From sequence record SRR22947727_843: a stretch of 45,062 nt of DNA; one strand, 5' to 3'. Below are positions 12,082 through 33,133 of the stretch, in pieces. The number at the start of each line of letters is the position of its first letter. The first letter of the stretch is position 1. A model generated the notes under the pieces. The model was not told the origin of the DNA, did not search any database, and saw only the letters and a program-made list of their open reading frames with translations. The position numbers and the translations under genes were made by a program.

Positions 12082-12792
12082 TTATTTGGCAGCCTGCAGC
12101 TGCTCATAGATCGCCTGCGCTTGGTGCCATAGCGCGTCATAATCGGCATCAACTCTTGGCGCGGGACCTGGTGCCGGTCCAAATCCAGTTGAGCGATGCA
12201 CGGCGTCATACCAATGGGCCGCCCAAATACCATCCTGCGCCCGCGGCCCAGCAGGCCAGTGTAACATCGCAGGGTCAAAGGCAATTTCCAGCCGCAGGCA
12301 GAGCTCCATAAGCGCAGATTTTGGATCGGCTAAAATATCATCGCTGTCGATCACAACCGGGACCTGACCCAGCGCCACGCAATGATCAAAAATTTTCTTT
12401 TGTTGCACAAACCCGAGGTCGTATAGAGTCACATCCGCGCGCTTGCGGGCATAGCTGGCGATCACCCTCGCGGGATCACGAATGAGAAACACATTGCGCA
12501 GCTGCGCCAGCAGATCCATCGGGAAATGGTCCAGCATATGATGGGTCATGTGTTTTTGATACCAAATCGCCGCACCACCTGGCACAGGGCCGGACAGCTC
12601 GGCACTCACCTGCACAGGATCACAAGCCATACTTGCCATGATTTCAGCACGCATCGGATGGTCCGCATTGGAATGATGAAGATAGGCGCCATAAAACGGC
12701 TCATCTACAACCCGCGTATCCGCCCGATTGCCAAAGGCATACATCATCGCCGTCGACAGGTTGCGCGGACCTGACCACATGGCGATCTTCAT
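12082..12792 (-). CDS. Sulfotransferase-like P-loop protein associated with a class IV aminotransferase
   Basis: WSGPRNLST resembles a 5'-phosphosulfate-binding loop and LIRDPxxVxxS a 3'-phosphate motif; DEPFY and YQKHM are also present. ATGA overlap with the upstream gene. Confidence 0.75.
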   Translation of the reverse strand: MKIAMWSGPRNLSTAMMYAFGNRADTRVVDEPFYGAYLHHSNADHPMRAEIMASMACDPVQVSAELSGPVPGGAAIWYQKHMTHHMLDHFPMDLLAQLRNVFLIRDPARVIASYARKRADVTLYDLGFVQQKKIFDHCVALGQVPVVIDSDDILADPKSALMELCLRLEIAFDPAMLHWPAGPRAQDGIWAAHWYDAVHRSTGFGPAPGPAPRVDADYDALWHQAQAIYEQLQAAK

Positions 12793-13697
12793 GCGCAGAC
12801 CTGGGCGATGAGGTCCTGATACAACCCCCGAATACGGCAGGTGATTGGCCCCATATCGCCGTCACCGATGGGGCGGCCATCAATCTCGATCACAGGGGTT
12901 TGCGCACCGAAGGTTCCGGTCAGGAAGGCCTCCTGCGCGCCATAGGTGTCCACCAAGCTGAAGTTGCGCTCAAAAACGGGGATGTCATGGGCGCGGCACA
13001 GATCAATGACCTTTTGCCGGGTGATGCCGTTCATGCAGTAATCTCCCGTACTGGTCCAAACCGCACCATCGCGCACAATAAAAAAGTTGCAGGCATTGGT
13101 GGTATTCACAAACCCATGCACGTCTAACATCAAAGCCTCATCCGCTCCGGCCTTTTGTGCCGCGATACAGGCCAAAATGCAGTTGAGTTTAGAATGCGAA
13201 TTTAATTTTGGATCCTGCGTCATGGGCAGGCCCCGCATATGCGGTACAGTGGCGAGACGAATGCCACGGGGAAGGCTGGGCTTTGAATGTTCCATTATTA
13301 TGGTAAATGTGGGGCCAGATTGTGACAGGTCTGGATGCTGAAACGGGCGGATCTTCACCCCGCGCGTGACCATAAGCCGAGCGTGCGCATCGCTCTGCAT
13401 CCCATTGGCCGCTTGCGTATCGCGCAAGGCCCGCTCCACCCCATTGCGATCCATACCAATATCAATATCCACGGCCTTTGCCGCCTCAAACAAACGGTTC
13501 AGATGTTCATCCATGAAGGCCCATGTGCCGTTATAAAGACGCAACCCCTCCCAAACCCCGTCCCCAAGCATAAACCCGCTGTCATATACGCTGACCAAGG
13601 CACGCTCTTTGGGCAGCAATTGCCCATTGAGGTAAATCAAAATGTCTTCATTGCGGGCATCTTCCGCAGCTTGGTGGGTTGTTACATGATCTGTCAT
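12789..13697 (-). CDS. PLP fold-type IV (D-amino-acid/branched-chain aminotransferase-like) protein
   Basis: YLNGQ, DSGFMLGDGVWEGLR, HLNRL, RLMVTRG, DEALMLD, GITR and EAFLTGT motifs. The catalytic region is atypical (see findings). Confidence 0.85.
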   Translation of the reverse strand: MTDHVTTHQAAEDARNEDILIYLNGQLLPKERALVSVYDSGFMLGDGVWEGLRLYNGTWAFMDEHLNRLFEAAKAVDIDIGMDRNGVERALRDTQAANGMQSDAHARLMVTRGVKIRPFQHPDLSQSGPTFTIIMEHSKPSLPRGIRLATVPHMRGLPMTQDPKLNSHSKLNCILACIAAQKAGADEALMLDVHGFVNTTNACNFFIVRDGAVWTSTGDYCMNGITRQKVIDLCRAHDIPVFERNFSLVDTYGAQEAFLTGTFGAQTPVIEIDGRPIGDGDMGPITCRIRGLYQDLIAQVCA

Positions 13698-13703
13698 ATC
13701 TCA

Positions 13704-13732
13704 AGCCTAGGCTGAGAGGCATTTCGAGCCAA
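13704..13732 (-). promoter_or_regulatory. Candidate sigma70-family promoter giving a leaderless transcript of the aminotransferase-like gene
   Basis: TTGGCT-N17-TAGGCT, then 6 nt, then the ATG at 13697. No clear SD sequence. Confidence 0.5.
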
Positions 13733-13786
13733 GAGGGAAAACTCACAAGGACGGGTGAAACACAGCAAGAGGCTCAAGCCCATCAC

Positions 13787-14662
13787 TCAGGGGGCGAATT
13801 CCATCACCTCTTGCAGGTTTGGAATAGCATCCGCTGTGCCGGATCGTGTAACCTTGAGGGCTGCGGCGCGGTTGGCACAGGTTAAGGCTGTTTGGGGGTC
13901 GTCTCCCAATGACAAACGCCCTATGAAATAACCACAGAAAGTGTCGCCTGCTCCGGTGGTGTCCACGGGAATGACAGGGATTCCAGCAACCTCAAACACC
14001 TGATCTGCTGAAAAATCATGATAGGCGGCACCTTTTGCGCCATAGGTAATGAGCATTCCATCGAGCCCAAGGCTGGCTAAACTGGAGATGCGCAGATCCT
14101 GTTGGAGCGCTTTCACCTCATGTTCATTCGCGCATAGGATATTCACAAATGGCAAAACCTCTGCCACAGCCTTCGCCTCGAAGGGTGCCGCTGAATAGAC
14201 CACGCGCGCAGCTTGAGCGCGCGCCATTCGGGCGGCATAGACTTGATGCGCAGTTTCATTTTGCATCACCAGCCAATCCCCCGCACCGATCGGGGCCAAC
14301 CATTGGGTGAGCTGCGCTTCACTCATCGCCGTATTGGCTCCAGAAAATAGGGTGATGGCGTTTTCACCATCAGCGGCCACCGTGATGATGGCGTGGCCGG
14401 AAGCGCAGGACAGGCGGGCAATTGAATCGCGCGCGACACCCAAAGCAACAAGCCGCTCGAGCAGCCAATCCCCATCGCGGCCCACGGCTCCCAAATGCAC
14501 CACATCCGCACCGGCTTGAACCATAGCCACAGATTGATTGGCCCCCTTGCCGCCCAGGCCTTGATCCAAATCAGTCGCCGCAAGGGTTTCACCAGGCGCC
14601 GGAATATGACGCACCTGGTAGAAGTAATCGGCGTTGATGGAGCCGAAATTGTAGACCGTCAT
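13787..14662 (-). CDS. rbsK: Ribokinase / PfkB family sugar kinase
   Basis: GSINAD, GGKGANQ, ANEHE and DTTGAGDTF motifs. ATGA overlap with maeB. Confidence 0.85.
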   Translation of the reverse strand: MTVYNFGSINADYFYQVRHIPAPGETLAATDLDQGLGGKGANQSVAMVQAGADVVHLGAVGRDGDWLLERLVALGVARDSIARLSCASGHAIITVAADGENAITLFSGANTAMSEAQLTQWLAPIGAGDWLVMQNETAHQVYAARMARAQAARVVYSAAPFEAKAVAEVLPFVNILCANEHEVKALQQDLRISSLASLGLDGMLITYGAKGAAYHDFSADQVFEVAGIPVIPVDTTGAGDTFCGYFIGRLSLGDDPQTALTCANRAAALKVTRSGTADAIPNLQEVMEFAP

Positions 14663-16914
14663 CTGATATTGCAGGCGGCAATGGCCGCCATATTGAGGAT
14701 GTCATTCACCGAAGACACGGTCGAGCAAATTTGAATTGGCTTATCGATGCCTGTCAAAATTGGACCGATGACAGTGGCACCACCCATTTCCTGCATCAAT
14801 TTCACTGAGATTGATGCCGAATGCCGCGCTGGAACCACCAAAACATTGGCCGGGCCAGTGAGGCGGCTGAACGGGTATTTCTTCATCTCATTGACGTTGA
14901 GCGCCACATCCACAGCCATCTCGCCCTCAAATTCAAAATCAACCCCACGCTTTAACAAGACATCCGGAGCAATGCGCATTTTTTCAGCGCGCTCTGAAAT
15001 CGGATAACCGAAGGTCGAAAAGCTTACAAAAGCCACCCGCGGATCCAAGCCCAAGGCACGCGCCACGCCAGCACCACGTTCGGCAATATCGGCAAGGTCG
15101 TTTTCATCAGGCCATTCATGAACCAATGTGTCAGCGATCAAAATGATTTTGCCTTTTGACAAAATAGCCGTCACCCCAACCGCGCCATCATGTGGGCCCA
15201 CGTCATAAACATGGTTGATCAATTCCAAAACATGCGCTGACTTGCGTGTAACACCCGTCACCAAACCGTCGCCATGTCCATGCGCAAGCATCAAAGATCC
15301 AAAAACGTGACGATCCCGGGCAGCAAGGCGATGCACATCGGTTGTATCAAAACCTTTGCGTTGCAGGCGCTGGTAGAGGTAGTTTTTGTAATCTTCCAAA
15401 TGTTCTGTGTTGGCGGCATTCACCACTTCCAGCTCACCGGCCGCATCACCCAGCCCCGCTGCGTCTAATCTTTGACGCACATCGCTTTCCCGACCCACGA
15501 CAATTGATTTTCCAAAACCCTGGCGTTGATACAAGACAGCAGCGCGCAAGACCCGCTCATCATCACCTTCGGCAAAGATAATCCGAGCCTGCGACGACCG
15601 TGCGCGCGCATTGATGCCGCGCAAAATGCTCGCGGTGGGATCCATGCGGGTTTTCAGGGACAGCTCATAGCCATCCATATCCACAATCGGCCGGCGGGCA
15701 GCGCCTGTGTCCATACCTGCGCGCGCAACTGCGGGAGGAATGCGGTAGATTAAACGTGGATCAAAGGGGGTTGGGATAATGTAATCGCGGCCAAAACTCA
15801 ACTTCGTGCCATAGGCCAAAGCCACCTCATCTGGCACCTCTTCACGCGCTAAATCCGCAAGCGCACGCGCACAAGCAATCTTCATTTCGTCATTAATCGC
15901 TCTGGCGTGAATATCTAATGCACCACGGAACAAATACGGGAAACCCAATACATTGTTGACCTGATTGGGATAATCCGACCGCCCCGTGGCCACGATCGCA
16001 TCTGGACGCACGGCATGCGCCTCTTCGGGTGTGATCTCAGGGTCTGGATTTGCCATAGCAAAAATCACTGGATCGGGGGCCATGCTTTCCACCATTGCTG
16101 GGGTCACGGCGCCTTTGACGGAAACACCCAAAAACACATCTGCGCCCGCCATAGCGTCATCCAAACTGCGCAACTCTGTTGAAATAGCATGGGCCGATTT
16201 CCATTGGTTCATACCCTCAGTACGTCCCTGATAAATCACGCCCTTAGTGTCGCACACAATGCAGTTGTTATGTTTGGCACCCATAGATTTTAAAAGTTCA
16301 ATACAGGCAATGCCAGCAGCACCGGCACCATTCAAAACAATTTTCACGTCCTGAATTTTCTTGCCAGACAGGTGCAAGGCATTGATCAGGCCTGCCGCGC
16401 AGATCACGGCCGTGCCGTGTTGGTCATCATGAAACACCGGAATATCCATGACCTCTTTCAAGGCTTGCTCGATGATAAAACACTCCGGTGCCTTAATGTC
16501 TTCGAGGTTGATGCCGCCAAAGGTCGGACCCATGAGCTTCACAGCATTGATAAATTCTTCGGGGTTTTCGGTGTCCAGCTCAATATCGATGGAGTTCACA
16601 TCTGCGAAGCGCTTAAACAAAACCGCCTTGCCCTCCATGACCGGCTTGGAGCCCAAAGCCCCAAGATTACCAAGACCCAATACCGCTGTTCCGTTCGAAA
16701 TCACCGCTACAAGGTTGCCTTTGTTGGTATAGTCATAGGCCAATTCAGGATTATCTGCGATGGCCAAACAGGGCACCGCAACACCTGGCGAATAGGCCAA
16801 GGAAAGATCACGCTGTGTTGTCATTGGCACAGAGGCGGTTATCTCAAACTTACCAGGCGTTGGCTCCAGGTGGTAGGCCAGCGCATCAGCGTCTGTGACT
16901 TTGTTATTGGGCAT
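14659..16914 (-). CDS. maeB: NADP-dependent malic enzyme with C-terminal PTA-like domain
   Basis: LSLAYSPGVA, KPVMEGKAVLFK, FHDDQHGTA, GAGAAG and ATGRSDYPNQVNN motifs; PTA-like half with FAEG and GPILTG. Confidence 0.96.
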   Translation of the reverse strand: MPNNKVTDADALAYHLEPTPGKFEITASVPMTTQRDLSLAYSPGVAVPCLAIADNPELAYDYTNKGNLVAVISNGTAVLGLGNLGALGSKPVMEGKAVLFKRFADVNSIDIELDTENPEEFINAVKLMGPTFGGINLEDIKAPECFIIEQALKEVMDIPVFHDDQHGTAVICAAGLINALHLSGKKIQDVKIVLNGAGAAGIACIELLKSMGAKHNNCIVCDTKGVIYQGRTEGMNQWKSAHAISTELRSLDDAMAGADVFLGVSVKGAVTPAMVESMAPDPVIFAMANPDPEITPEEAHAVRPDAIVATGRSDYPNQVNNVLGFPYLFRGALDIHARAINDEMKIACARALADLAREEVPDEVALAYGTKLSFGRDYIIPTPFDPRLIYRIPPAVARAGMDTGAARRPIVDMDGYELSLKTRMDPTASILRGINARARSSQARIIFAEGDDERVLRAAVLYQRQGFGKSIVVGRESDVRQRLDAAGLGDAAGELEVVNAANTEHLEDYKNYLYQRLQRKGFDTTDVHRLAARDRHVFGSLMLAHGHGDGLVTGVTRKSAHVLELINHVYDVGPHDGAVGVTAILSKGKIILIADTLVHEWPDENDLADIAERGAGVARALGLDPRVAFVSFSTFGYPISERAEKMRIAPDVLLKRGVDFEFEGEMAVDVALNVNEMKKYPFSRLTGPANVLVVPARHSASISVKLMQEMGGATVIGPILTGIDKPIQICSTVSSVNDILNMAAIAACNIR

Positions 16915-29474: not shown

Positions 29475-30746
29475 TTAGGTGTTCATGGAATCGAAGAATT
29501 CAGAATTGGATTTGGTCTGCTTCAATTTCGAGATCAAGAATTCTATCGCATCAGTCGTCCCCATCGGATTCAAGATCCGGCGCAAGACATAGGTTTTTTG
29601 CAGATCGACTTTATCCACCAGCAGATCTTCCTTACGCGTTCCTGATTTCAAAACGTCCATTGCTGGGAAAACGCGTTTGTCGGCAACTTTCCGGTCCAAG
29701 ACGATTTCCGAGTTACCAGTGCCTTTAAATTCTTCGAAAATAACCTCATCCATGCGGCTGCCTGTATCAATCAAAGCGGTCGCAATAATAGTCAAAGAGC
29801 CGCCTTCTTCAATATTTCGTGCTGCGCCAAAAAAGCGTTTTGGCCGCTGCAAGGCATTCGCATCCACACCACCGGTCAATACCTTACCGGAGGACGGCAC
29901 CACCGTATTAAATGCCCGACCCAATCGAGTGATCGAATCAAGCAAAATGACCACGTCACGTTTGTGCTCAACCAAACGTTTCGCTTTTTCAATCACCATT
30001 TCGGACACAGCAACGTGACGCGTCGCGGGTTCATCAAAGGTCGAGCTCACAACCTCACCCTTCACAGACCGCTGCATATCGGTAACCTCTTCCGGCCGCT
30101 CATCAATCAACAAAACGATCAAATAACATTCCGGATGGTTTCTTTCGATAGAATTGGCAATGTTTTGAAGTAAAACGGTTTTACCCGTCCGTGGCGGTGC
30201 AACGATCAAAGATCTTTGACCCTTACCAATCGGGGCAACCAAATCAATAATCCGCGCCGAGCGATCCTTCGTCGTGGGATCCTCAAGCTCCATTTTCAAC
30301 CGCTCATCTGGATAAAGCGGCGTCAGATTTTCAAATGCCACCTTATGACGTGCGCGCTCTGGGTTCTCAAAATTGATCTTCTCAACCTTGGTCATACCAA
30401 AATAGCGTTCTGTATCCTCTGGCGCCTTAATGATCCCCTCAATGGTATCTCCGGTCCGCAGAGAGAATTGCCGAATCATTTCTGGAGAAACATAAATATC
30501 ATCTGGACCTGGCAAATAATTTGCTTCTGGAGACCGCAAAAACCCAAAGCCGTCTTGAAGCACTTCCAAAACCCCATCTCCAGAGATTTCCGCTCCATCT
30601 TCAGCGCGCTCTTTCAAAATTGAGAACATCATATCGCCCTTACGCATGGTCGACGCGTTCTCAATTTCCAGCTCTTCCGCCATAGAAAGCAGATCTTTTG
30701 GGCTTTTCGCCTTTAATTCGGCCAAAGTCACACGGTTACTTGTCAT
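29475..30746 (-). CDS. rho: Transcription termination factor Rho
   Basis: [33 protein letters not shown] and FEEFKGTGN motifs. Confidence 0.98.
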
Positions 30747-30869
30747 GGAGTCTCTTCCTGCCCAAGATCGCCCCGGGCACCACAGATGTCATTAAGAAAA
30801 AGCAATCCCGAACGGGAGCGCGATCTCATTACTGAAAACCAAGCGACAAGTCAAATATTACAAACTTAT

Positions 30870-31322
30870 TTAAAATGGCCGAACCACAACCATTATAACA
30901 ATTGCCAGTAACAAAACTGTCGGAACTTCATTCATAATTCGGTAGGTTTTTCCAGTCAGATGATTTTCACCATTCTCGAAATCTCTTTGCCTCTTGGCCA
31001 GCCAAACATGAAATACTGTCATTGCCACAATGGATATCAATTTCACCCAGGGCCAAACCTCTGACCAATTCAACACGCCGGGTATGATCGCCAAAGATAA
31101 CCCAAAGCCCCACGTCGCAAGCATGGCTGGTGTCATAATGACCTTCAACAACTTTGATTCCATCATGCAGAATAATCTATCTGTATCAGATGGAACTTTA
31201 ACTTTTTCACTATGATGTACAAAAAGGCGAGGCAGATAAAAAATCCCAGCCATCCAAGAAATGACGGACACGATATGACCAGCTTTTAACCACGGGTACA
31301 TTGCAATTAAGTAATCTATCAT
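30870..31322 (-). CDS. hemJ: Protoporphyrinogen IX oxidase HemJ
   Basis: W.KA.H...VISWMAG.FYLPRLFV.H and R.MNEVPT motifs; four TM helices. Confidence 0.9.
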   Translation of the reverse strand: MIDYLIAMYPWLKAGHIVSVISWMAGIFYLPRLFVHHSEKVKVPSDTDRLFCMMESKLLKVIMTPAMLATWGFGLSLAIIPGVLNWSEVWPWVKLISIVAMTVFHVWLAKRQRDFENGENHLTGKTYRIMNEVPTVLLLAIVIMVVVRPF

Positions 31323-31717
31323 CGGACTGTATTTCTACCCCTCTATATTAATAAAGATAATATATGATTTTAGTAGAGAGATGTAGTGCCGTCAGACTCT
31401 GTGGATCAAATTTTATAAATCCATTTATCCACAGATGGATAAAAACAACCAACGTCTCAAAATAATTAAATTAAACGCCTATAAACAGAAACTTAAAAAC
31501 AGACCTTGTGTGTAACCCTGTTGATAGAATTGTTAAACTACACCATAATAAAAATTATCATCGGCACTAAATTATCCATATCCACAGAAGATAAATCCGT
31601 TGAAAAATCCTGAACCCTGACGAAATCCAGGAAGAATTCTTGTATTTGCATAAATCCGCAATTACCCCCACAGTTCAGTCACAGGTCACACAAAACATAT
31701 CCACAGGTTTATCTCAC
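31323..31717. other. Chromosomal replication origin (oriC)
   Basis: AT-rich gap of about 395 bp between divergent genes. DnaA boxes: TGATCCACA (31400-31408, minus), TTATCCACA (31425-31433), TTACACACA (31507-31515, minus), TTATCCATA/ATATCCACA (31572-31586) and ATATCCACA (31697-31705). parAB, parS and mnmG are nearby. Confidence 0.85.
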
Positions 31718-33133
31718 ATGGATCTCATCCTCGCGTCTCAATCAGCCACGCGCAGTCGCATTTTAAACTCTGCACGAATAAGCGCTCAGTTTATGTCACC
31801 GCAAATTGATGAAGAAAACATTACGAAATCTCTGATTGCAGAACAGGCCCTGCCCCGCGACATTGCCGACACTCTAGCCGAACATAAAGCGCTAAAAATA
31901 TCCCGAAAGAATCCAGATAGTTGGGTGATTGGATGTGATCAAATACTGGTTTTTGAGGGCGAAATTTTCGGAAAGCCCGCCTCACCCGAGGCGCTCAAAA
32001 CCTCTCTATCTCGCCTTTCTGGGAAAACGCATCGTTTGATTACTGCTAATGTCATCTACAAGGACAGCAAACCTCAATGGCGACATATTTCAATCAGCCA
32101 TATGTCTATGCGCTCTATGAGTGCGGCTGAGATAGACGCCTATATAGAAGCTCATTGGCAGGATGTGAAACATTCAGCCGGGGGCTATCACTTTGAAAAA
32201 ACGCCAGATCTGTTTGCTGATGTCCGTGGCAATTGGTTTGATATTATGGGGCTTTCTATCGGGCCAATCATCAGTTTTTTGAACCAGACCAATACAACCG
32301 CTCCGTTTCAAACCCCTAAACTTGCGGCGGTTTTGGGGCATCCGATAGCGCAGAGCAAATCGCCCTTGATGCATGGGCATTGGCTTAAGAAAAATCAAAT
32401 ATCAGGCGATTATTTCGCCATCGACATTCCCCCCGCACGCTTTAGTGAAACGGTGCGCATGCTGTTTAACCTAGGCTTTTCAGGTTTCAATGTCACCATT
32501 CCGCACAAAGAACAAGCATTGGCATTTGCGGATGACGCCACCCCCCGGGCGCAACGCATTGGAGCATCCAACACTTTGATAAAAAAGGACAATGTCAATA
32601 TTAATGCCGATAATACAGACGGTTATGGATTTATGACCAATCTGATCGCTCAAAGCACGACGTGGCAGCCAAGCGCTGGTCCATCTTTGGTGTTGGGCGC
32701 AGGTGGCGCTGCGCGGGCGATTTTGGTTGCTCTTTTGGACGCTGGCGCACCCAAGATTTACCTTTGTAATCGTACCCGTGCACGGGCAGAAGATTTGGCC
32801 GCTGAGATTTCAGATCTCATTGAAGTGATTGGGTGGCAGGACAAAGAGGATATTTTGCCAAAGGTGTTCACCGTGGTGAACAGCACCTCGCTTGGGATGA
32901 TTGGAAAACCTGCCTTAGATTTCGATTTGACCCATGTGAATCCGCGCGCCCTGGTCGCTGATCTCATTTACGCCCCCCTCGAAACCCAGCTTTTGAAGGA
33001 TGCGCGGGCGCGTGGATGTGAGGTGGTGGGCGGTATTGGTATGTTGTTGCACCAAGGTGTCCCAGGGTTTGAGGCTTGGTTTGGCACCCGGCCCGTGGTG
33101 GATCAAGAGCTAGAGGCATTGGTGCTCACATGA
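31718..33133 (+). CDS. aroE: Fused Maf-family nucleotide pyrophosphatase / shikimate dehydrogenase
   Basis: The first ~190 aa carry Maf motifs (LILASQS..R, IDE, GCDQ, GKP, LSGKTH, AGGY, GL). The remainder carries AroE motifs (GHPIAQSKSP, NVTIPHK, NTD, GAGGAAR, NRT, DLIY, GMLLHQG). There is no stop between them. Confidence 0.9.
   Translation: MDLILASQSATRSRILNSARISAQFMSPQIDEENITKSLIAEQALPRDIADTLAEHKALKISRKNPDSWVIGCDQILVFEGEIFGKPASPEALKTSLSRLSGKTHRLITANVIYKDSKPQWRHISISHMSMRSMSAAEIDAYIEAHWQDVKHSAGGYHFEKTPDLFADVRGNWFDIMGLSIGPIISFLNQTNTTAPFQTPKLAAVLGHPIAQSKSPLMHGHWLKKNQISGDYFAIDIPPARFSETVRMLFNLGFSGFNVTIPHKEQALAFADDATPRAQRIGASNTLIKKDNVNINADNTDGYGFMTNLIAQSTTWQPSAGPSLVLGAGGAARAILVALLDAGAPKIYLCNRTRARAEDLAAEISDLIEVIGWQDKEDILPKVFTVVNSTSLGMIGKPALDFDLTHVNPRALVADLIYAPLETQLLKDARARGCEVVGGIGMLLHQGVPGFEAWFGTRPVVDQELEALVLT

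Follow-up and report, generated by a model that had tools for sequence, protein, structure and literature searches.

The window analysed here is a stretch of 45,062 nucleotides of DNA from sequence record SRR22947727_843, and two overlapping genes on its minus strand are the subject of this report. The first (12789..13697) is an open reading frame (ORF) for an aminotransferase-like protein of 302 amino acids that carries the Aminotran_4 domain of fold-type IV enzymes (Pfam PF01063, E 3.6e-40). The second lies downstream (12082..12792) and encodes a protein of 236 amino acids assigned to Sulfotransfer_5 (Pfam PF19798, E 8.2e-73). The stop codon of the aminotransferase-like gene and the start codon of the sulfotransferase-like gene overlap in the sequence ATGA (12789..12792). 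This translationally coupled partner, which is absent from an earlier note made on the same DNA, is the most informative feature of the locus. A structural model of the aminotransferase-like protein (AlphaFold2, mean predicted local distance difference test (pLDDT) 84) was matched by Foldseek to two crystal structures from Variovorax paradoxus, 7Z79 and 9J32 (template modelling (TM) score 0.86), and to aminotransferases of branched-chain amino acids (BCATs) and D-amino acid transaminases (D-AATs) at TM scores of 0.79-0.83.

The active-site residues were located by HMMER alignment to two solved archaeal BCATs (5CM0 and 5MQZ). Residues 161-176, QDPKLNSHSKLNCILA (13170..13217, minus strand, as are all features of this gene), correspond to the Schiff-base segment. 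Within it, Asn166 (13200-13202) falls under the lysine of '..niKSlnyLNniLA' and Lys170 (13188-13190) under the tyrosine, and Lys164 (13206-13208) occupies a position that is not conserved among relatives. Residues 195-206, GFVNTTNACNFF (13080..13115), correspond to the segment at the pyridine nitrogen (N1), with Thr199 (13101-13103) under the glutamate of 'GyisEGsgdNiF'. Both the Schiff-base lysine and the N1 glutamate of fold-type IV enzymes are therefore replaced. The earlier note had aligned Asn166 and Thr199 to these two sites by hand, and both its alignment and its residue numbering are correct. It had also listed HxxRL, GITR and TGT as retained residues of the phosphate cup. All three can be seen in the translation and are conserved in relatives, as HLNRL (residues 65-69, 13491..13505), which holds the phosphate-binding Arg68 of the cofactor cup, GITR (224-227, 13017..13028) and TGT (260-262, 12912..12920).

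Screening against NCBIfam returned 18 models, which stand for BCAT, D-AAT and aminodeoxychorismate (ADC) lyase. Every one of them scored under its curated cut-off (best 225.3 vs 363 bits; TIGR01122, 179 vs 246; TIGR01121, 155 vs 277). Moreover, 7Z79 is titled 'aminotransferase-like protein' by its depositors, and G001, the nearest genome compared, contains three further fold-type IV paralogues with both Lys and Glu, so that ordinary transaminase functions are covered elsewhere. Taken together with the replacement of both catalytic residues, these data indicate that routine naming of the 12789..13697 product as a BCAT or D-AAT is almost certainly unjustified, and the doubt that the earlier note had cast on such a label was well placed. 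The problem extends beyond the window. Wherever a name is given to members of this family, it is 'branched-chain amino acid aminotransferase', 'D-amino acid aminotransferase' or else 'aminotransferase class IV', a label that is almost certainly wrong and that feeds errors into metabolic reconstructions of the abundant marine Rhodobacterales.

A lysine-less branch of fold-type IV proteins

The closest solved match is 7Z79 (HMMER, E 4.6e-85 across residues 7-299; Foldseek, 49% identity), released on 2022-04-13 as 'Crystal structure of aminotransferase-like protein from Variovorax paradoxus'. The second entry, 9J32, has the same title with the addition 'mutant N174K' and was released on 2025-01-29; neither title gives the protein a function. 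Since position 174 of the 7Z79 chain aligns with Asn166 here (offset +8, HMMER alignment), the crystallographers mutated the very asparagine that the earlier note had flagged, and 9J32 is the structure in which it is altered. The depositors are said to have regarded the protein as one of hidden function in which pyridoxal 5′-phosphate (PLP) can be held via its phosphate. The V. paradoxus protein resembles the window protein in fold and length, and in having Asn at the lysine site, a hydroxyl residue at the glutamate site, and the motifs LNSHSxLN, HxxRL, GITR and TGT. It differs in having Ser in place of Thr199 and Arg in place of Lys at both 164 and 170. Given similarity over the full length, together with Asn and Ser/Thr at the two sites within LNSHSxLN and GFVxxxN, the 12789..13697 product is assigned by sequence to the lysine-less 7Z79-type branch, which others had noticed before and of which a crystal structure exists. 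The missing lysine and the family structure are already known, and the window protein is a further member.

Canonical enzymes of the same fold, namely BCATs (5CM0, 5MQZ and Escherichia coli IlvE, 1I1K), D-AAT (1DAA) and ADC lyase (2Y4R), share the overall fold, the phosphate cup and Arg107 with the window protein (E 4e-49 to 1e-14), and a dimer-type architecture such as theirs may be expected. However, the window protein departs from them in having Asn in place of Lys, Thr in place of Glu, Lys in place of Tyr, Trp49 in place of Phe and Lys115 in place of Gly, and in an additional N-terminal DxRN motif. Also among the matches are two D-AAT mutants, 1G2W (E177S) and 5DAA (E177K), with the same kind of change at N1 as Thr199 or its Ser equivalent, but these keep the Schiff-base lysine and are laboratory products. 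Mutants of D-AAT at Glu177 are reportedly weak transaminases with altered side reactions. A further analogy, from fold-type I, is provided by ColD and E1, pyridoxamine 5′-phosphate (PMP)-dependent enzymes with His at the catalytic lysine. In these the N1 acid is kept, whereas the window protein has Asn and Thr at the two sites; the combination of His and Glu is found in a sister class.

For comparison of individual positions, relatives with Asn at the lysine site (the Asn class) were de-duplicated at 75% identity, leaving 25 rows, and were set against 21 rows of the sister class with His at this site (the His class) and 41 rows bearing Lys, of which 39 carry both Lys and Glu. Asn is present at position 166 in 25/25 rows, against Lys in 41/41 of the Lys class. 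This alignment of relatives, which the earlier note had called for, shows that the asparagine is not a product of chance or of sequencing error. Other positions in the Asn class are equally constrained, with Ser169, Asn201, Trp49, Asp13, Arg15 and Asn16 each found in all 25 rows and His168 and Lys115 in 24. Position 170 (Lys or Arg), position 199 (Thr or Ser) and His105 are near-invariant as well. Asn201 is a family-specific invariant, Trp49 replaces a canonical Phe and His105 a canonical Tyr. Lys115, in the loop after TRG (13353..13355), is the best-conserved cationic residue specific to the family (Arg in the one remaining Asn-class row); Lys also occurs here in 16/21 His-class rows, and the position is Gly in 24/41 canonical relatives. 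The motif D13-x-R15-N16 (13650..13661) lies within an N-terminal extension that is absent from most canonical relatives. Arg68 of the phosphate cup is found throughout (25/25 Asn-class, 20/21 His-class and 41/41 canonical rows), and Arg107, part of the Tyr/His-x-Arg carboxylate-binding motif, is kept in the lysine-less proteins.

The same pattern holds on a wider scale. Both K[LYF]NSHSKLN and GFVNTTN[AG]CN[FLV]F are kept in the window protein and at 80/80 related genomic loci taken from named genomes. Among aligned rows, the residues at the lysine and glutamate sites are Asn/Thr in 202, Asn/Ser in 13 and Lys/Glu in 39, and the second lysine-less class, with His at the lysine site and the glutamate kept, accounts for 28. 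The retention of a new, near-invariant set of pocket residues from bacteria to algae fits better with an active site that has been retooled than with one that has decayed.

The earlier note had left a choice between a PLP enzyme whose lysine had migrated, to Lys164 or Lys170, and a fold-type IV protein with another phosphorylated ligand. The first option is not borne out by the relatives for either of these positions. Among the 25 rows, position 164 reads Lys in five, Gly in five, Arg in four, Met in four and Ala in three, with other residues in the remainder, and position 170 reads Lys in 21 and Arg in four, including the crystallised V. paradoxus protein, which has Arg at the equivalents of both. 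Because Arg occurs at these positions and is unable to form a Schiff base, neither can be a family-wide catalytic lysine, and positions that tolerate Arg are better read as cationic binding or acid/base residues. The phosphate cup may hold PLP or PMP non-covalently, or else a different phosphate ester or a sulfate ester.

A tree of 89 rows was built with the trait columns removed. On one side of a weakly supported split (Shimodaira-Hasegawa-like approximate likelihood ratio test (SH-aLRT) 78) are 39/41 Lys-site rows, all with Lys and Glu. The other side has 50 rows, made up of the His and Asn classes and four odd rows. Rows of the Asn class group together as a clade (SH-aLRT 93), with the His class as an adjoining grade. 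The remaining two Lys-site rows, P0206 and P0274, are nested within the Asn clade and have Lys back at the Schiff-base site, with no N1 glutamate (Thr in one and Gly in the other). These two could represent reversions that arose in nature, akin to the N174K change made in the laboratory.

Coupling to a Sulfotransfer_5 partner

The downstream protein contains a P-loop-like MWSGPRNLST and a second motif, IRDPARVIASY, both of which are kept in 14 homologues. Its fold is assigned from Pfam and from weak profile matches to the Protein Data Bank, in which only the sulfotransferase domains of CurM and OLS (4GBM and 4GOX) were matched among solved structures (E 1.1e-6 and 8e-6), over the C-terminal half and the region of the 3′-phosphate-binding motif. 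A search of the ESM Atlas with this protein returned only Sulfotransfer_5 clusters. The CurM and OLS domains are very distant from it and differ in being domains of polyketide synthases that act on acyl chains bound to a carrier; neither a carrier protein nor a synthase was found near the aminotransferase-like/Sulfotransfer_5 pair.

The association of the two genes is supported on three independent grounds, namely synteny, co-occurrence and fusion, and is strong. Among the 80 loci, a Sulfotransfer_5 gene lies immediately downstream on the same strand in 63 and elsewhere in the locus in four; it is absent from ten, and three loci were too short to judge. In a sample of 401 genomes from one phylum, a strong match to the profile of the lysine-less protein (E <= 5e-107, the next best match being 5e-67) was found in 35 genomes and PF19798 in 34, with both present in 32 (one of which, G384, is unpublished), the fold-type IV protein alone in three and PF19798 alone in two. 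The two genes are distant from one another or on separate contigs in 8/32 of the genomes with both, all eight belonging to the same family as the window. The third ground comes from homologues of at least 530 residues, 51/58 of which join PF19798 and PF01063 in one protein. Those with names are from green algae, and the algal proteins that carry the fusion retain the xNSHSKLN and GTCN signature at 40-55% identity to the window protein. In these the two domains form one polypeptide with the sulfotransferase N-terminal, whereas the window has two overlapping genes in the reverse order. The sister class accounts for 10/58 of the long homologues, and both lysine-less classes are found fused to Sulfotransfer_5.

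The module is widely spread. It occurs in 18/20 sampled genomes of the family to which the window belongs, as well as in Bacteroidota, Actinomycetota, green algae and a land plant. BCAL1 and BCAL2 of Arabidopsis are presumably proteins of the same kind, with Sulfotransfer_5 and fold-type IV domains. The land-plant protein Zb1G011066, a member of the BCAT family labelled 'branched-chain-amino-acid aminotransferase-like', is given a D-AAT_like domain together with a Sulfotransfer_5 domain in PMC13725701, the same two domains as in the window pair.

Some lysine-less proteins occur in other settings. In two Ruegeria loci, L076 and L080 (6766-9786), copies about 70% identical have no sulfotransferase nearby. 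Their flanks carry a gene for an NMT1_3-type binding protein on the one hand and a pyrroline-5-carboxylate-reductase-like gene on the other, an arrangement kept in both Ruegeria genomes. A single metagenomic protein, P0124 (962 amino acids), joins a lysine-less fold-type IV domain to a C-terminal metallophosphatase/5′-nucleotidase module, and possibly reflects either a link to hydrolysis of the nucleotide 3′-phosphoadenosine 5′-phosphate (PAP) or read-through in gene calling. Other rare fusions of the fold-type IV domain, to an alpha/beta-hydrolase (P0126) and to a methyltransferase (P0136), are single clusters that may be read-throughs and were not used.

What the pair may do

Putting residue patterns and gene arrangement together, we consider it probable that the lysine-less fold-type IV protein forms a conserved two-protein module with Sulfotransfer_5, and is not a BCAT or D-AAT. 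It would most likely be a retooled ligand-binding or catalytic partner of the sulfotransferase. The lysine-less pocket would still bind a phosphate- or sulfate-bearing ligand non-covalently, with PLP or PMP as the first candidate, and the protein would act on, or present, the substrate or product of the sulfotransferase. The link to Sulfotransfer_5 offers a concrete handle on the function of a crystallised family, and the interest lies not in the missing lysine but in the role of a module that bacteria and plants have both kept.

A tentative scheme, the one we prefer, can be drawn for how the two proteins might work together. The partner would sulfate the hydroxyl of a small carboxylate-bearing metabolite with 3′-phosphoadenosine 5′-phosphosulfate (PAPS), as do the distantly related 'activating' sulfotransferases of CurM and OLS. 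The retooled fold-type IV site would then process the sulfate ester by elimination or replacement, with His168 or Lys/Arg170 standing in for the missing lysine as acid/base and the neutral Thr199 de-tuning the cofactor away from transamination. The scheme is suggested by the resemblance to CurM and OLS, by the kept carboxylate-binding Arg107 and by analogy with PLP enzymes in which a Ser or Thr lies at the pyridine nitrogen. As a whole it is possible though somewhat unlikely. The adenosine 5′-phosphosulfate (APS) kinase domain is present in 34/34 genomes with PF19798, as would fit the use of PAPS, but also in 370/401 overall, and does not discriminate. In its most extended form, the proposal is of a two-step pathway shared by marine bacteria, green algae and land plants, in which sulfation by PAPS is followed by fold-type IV elimination or replacement with non-covalent vitamin B6 or none. 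This is improbable; if true, it would represent a new catalytic solution in a textbook fold and would give sulfation a new part to play in core metabolism.

A number of points weigh against a retooled partner of the sulfotransferase. A full-text literature search of limited coverage found no substrate, bound ligand or activity for any member of the family, nor a functional study of the pair. PMC12429042, PMC11673721, PMC10671532, PMC12506393, PMC13449962 and bioRxiv 10.1101/2024.03.19.585368 likewise yielded no information about the family. The proposed chemistry draws on patterns of residues together with a weak match to CurM and OLS (E 1e-6, confined to the C-terminal half). The AlphaFold2 model falls below a pLDDT of 50 at residues 158-167 and gives no reading of pocket geometry. 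Moreover, Sulfotransfer_5 is missing from 10/80 loci and from 3/35 genomes carrying the lysine-less protein (G354, G396 and G323), which indicates that the protein is able to exist without its partner. Finally, a non-catalytic ligand sensor can keep a pocket equally conserved.

The last point leads to the alternative that survives best, and which we regard as doubtful but credible. The lysine-less protein could be a catalytically dead pseudoenzyme whose role is to stabilise or regulate the sulfotransferase, whether as scaffold, as chaperone or as an allosteric subunit for ligand sensing. It would perhaps sense PLP or another phosphorylated metabolite, with no chemistry of its own. The loss of both canonical catalytic essentials would be explained, as would the tight coupling, co-occurrence and fusion with an enzyme-like partner. 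There is also a precedent, as in PMC11726168 an active fold-type I aminotransferase of Serratia is described in a heterooligomer with a lysine-less paralogue (Ser4/Ser5). However, the partner in the present case is no aminotransferase paralogue from which the missing residues could come, and it is absent from 10/80 loci and 3/35 genomes. Furthermore, the replaced positions are not drifting, and a near-invariant new pocket from bacteria to algae fits a working site better.

A second alternative, which is unlikely, is that the phosphate cup holds a ligand other than vitamin B6, such as the sulfate ester that the partner produces, or PAPS or PAP, which would make the protein a subunit for binding or processing the product or for handling the donor. 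Consistent with this, Arg68, GITR and TGT for phosphate binding are kept while the Lys, Glu and Tyr that serve the pyridine ring and C4′ have all changed, and a sulfate ester made by a sulfotransferase-like partner could plausibly mimic a phosphate ester. Against it stands the binding of PLP via its phosphate that the depositors are said to have reported for the V. paradoxus protein. A true PLP transaminase with its Schiff-base lysine relocated to Lys164, Lys170 or Lys115 is very unlikely, since although Lys170 (21/25) and Lys115 (24/25) are well conserved and Lys115 is absent from canonical relatives, position 164 is variable, Arg replaces Lys170 and Lys115 in some members and stands at both 164 and 170 in V. 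paradoxus, the N1 glutamate needed for transamination is also gone, and the depositors' N174K mutant treats the wild type as lysine-less.

Genomic surroundings of the pair

Returning to the putative two-protein module, its neighbours were compared at 11 partnerless loci and 16 loci from other families, and no third gene was found to recur beside the pair outside Rhodobacterales, which points to a self-contained module. Neighbours at these foreign loci were picked by hand from two ORF lists, as automatic callers had lost real genes in some of them. They include genes for a short-chain dehydrogenase/reductase, a methyltransferase, an alpha/beta-hydrolase, enolase, a cytochrome P450, an amidohydrolase, enoyl-CoA hydratase, and transporters of the ATP-binding cassette and major facilitator superfamily types.

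Upstream of the aminotransferase-like gene in the window is a PfkB-family kinase (13787-14662, minus strand) that is ribokinase-like and scores under the equivalog cut-off (216 vs 300 bits). It overlaps by 4 bases the end of a gene for an NADP-malic enzyme with malic and PTA_PTB domains (14659-16914, minus strand). The order maeB-pfkB before the aminotransferase-like gene is found in many Rhodobacterales, with kinases 44-53% and MaeB proteins 74-84% identical, and is an arrangement local to that group. The window as a whole is core chromosome, as it carries MutS, MnmG/MnmE, Rho, ArgG and threonine dehydratase.

RNA-library contigs, drawn from four studies, run across the point where the two genes meet and, in 3/4 runs, break near the 5′ end of the aminotransferase-like ORF (~13531-13737). 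As such contigs may hold DNA and give neither strand nor level, they are a weak hint that the pair is expressed and has a separate promoter.

Two further observations concern the remainder of the window. An ORF of 497 amino acids (31640-33133, plus strand) combines a Maf-like domain (residues 29-216) with shikimate dehydrogenase (231-485), and is either a natural fusion of two genes that are usually separate neighbours or an ORF lengthened by an in-frame gene upstream of it. In the same region, GC content falls to 0.435 at 30001-32000, compared with ~0.52-0.55 elsewhere. This stretch lies between rho, a UPF0093 (HemJ-like) gene and the maf/aroE ORF, near mnmG/mnmE, and could be an origin-proximal AT-rich zone.

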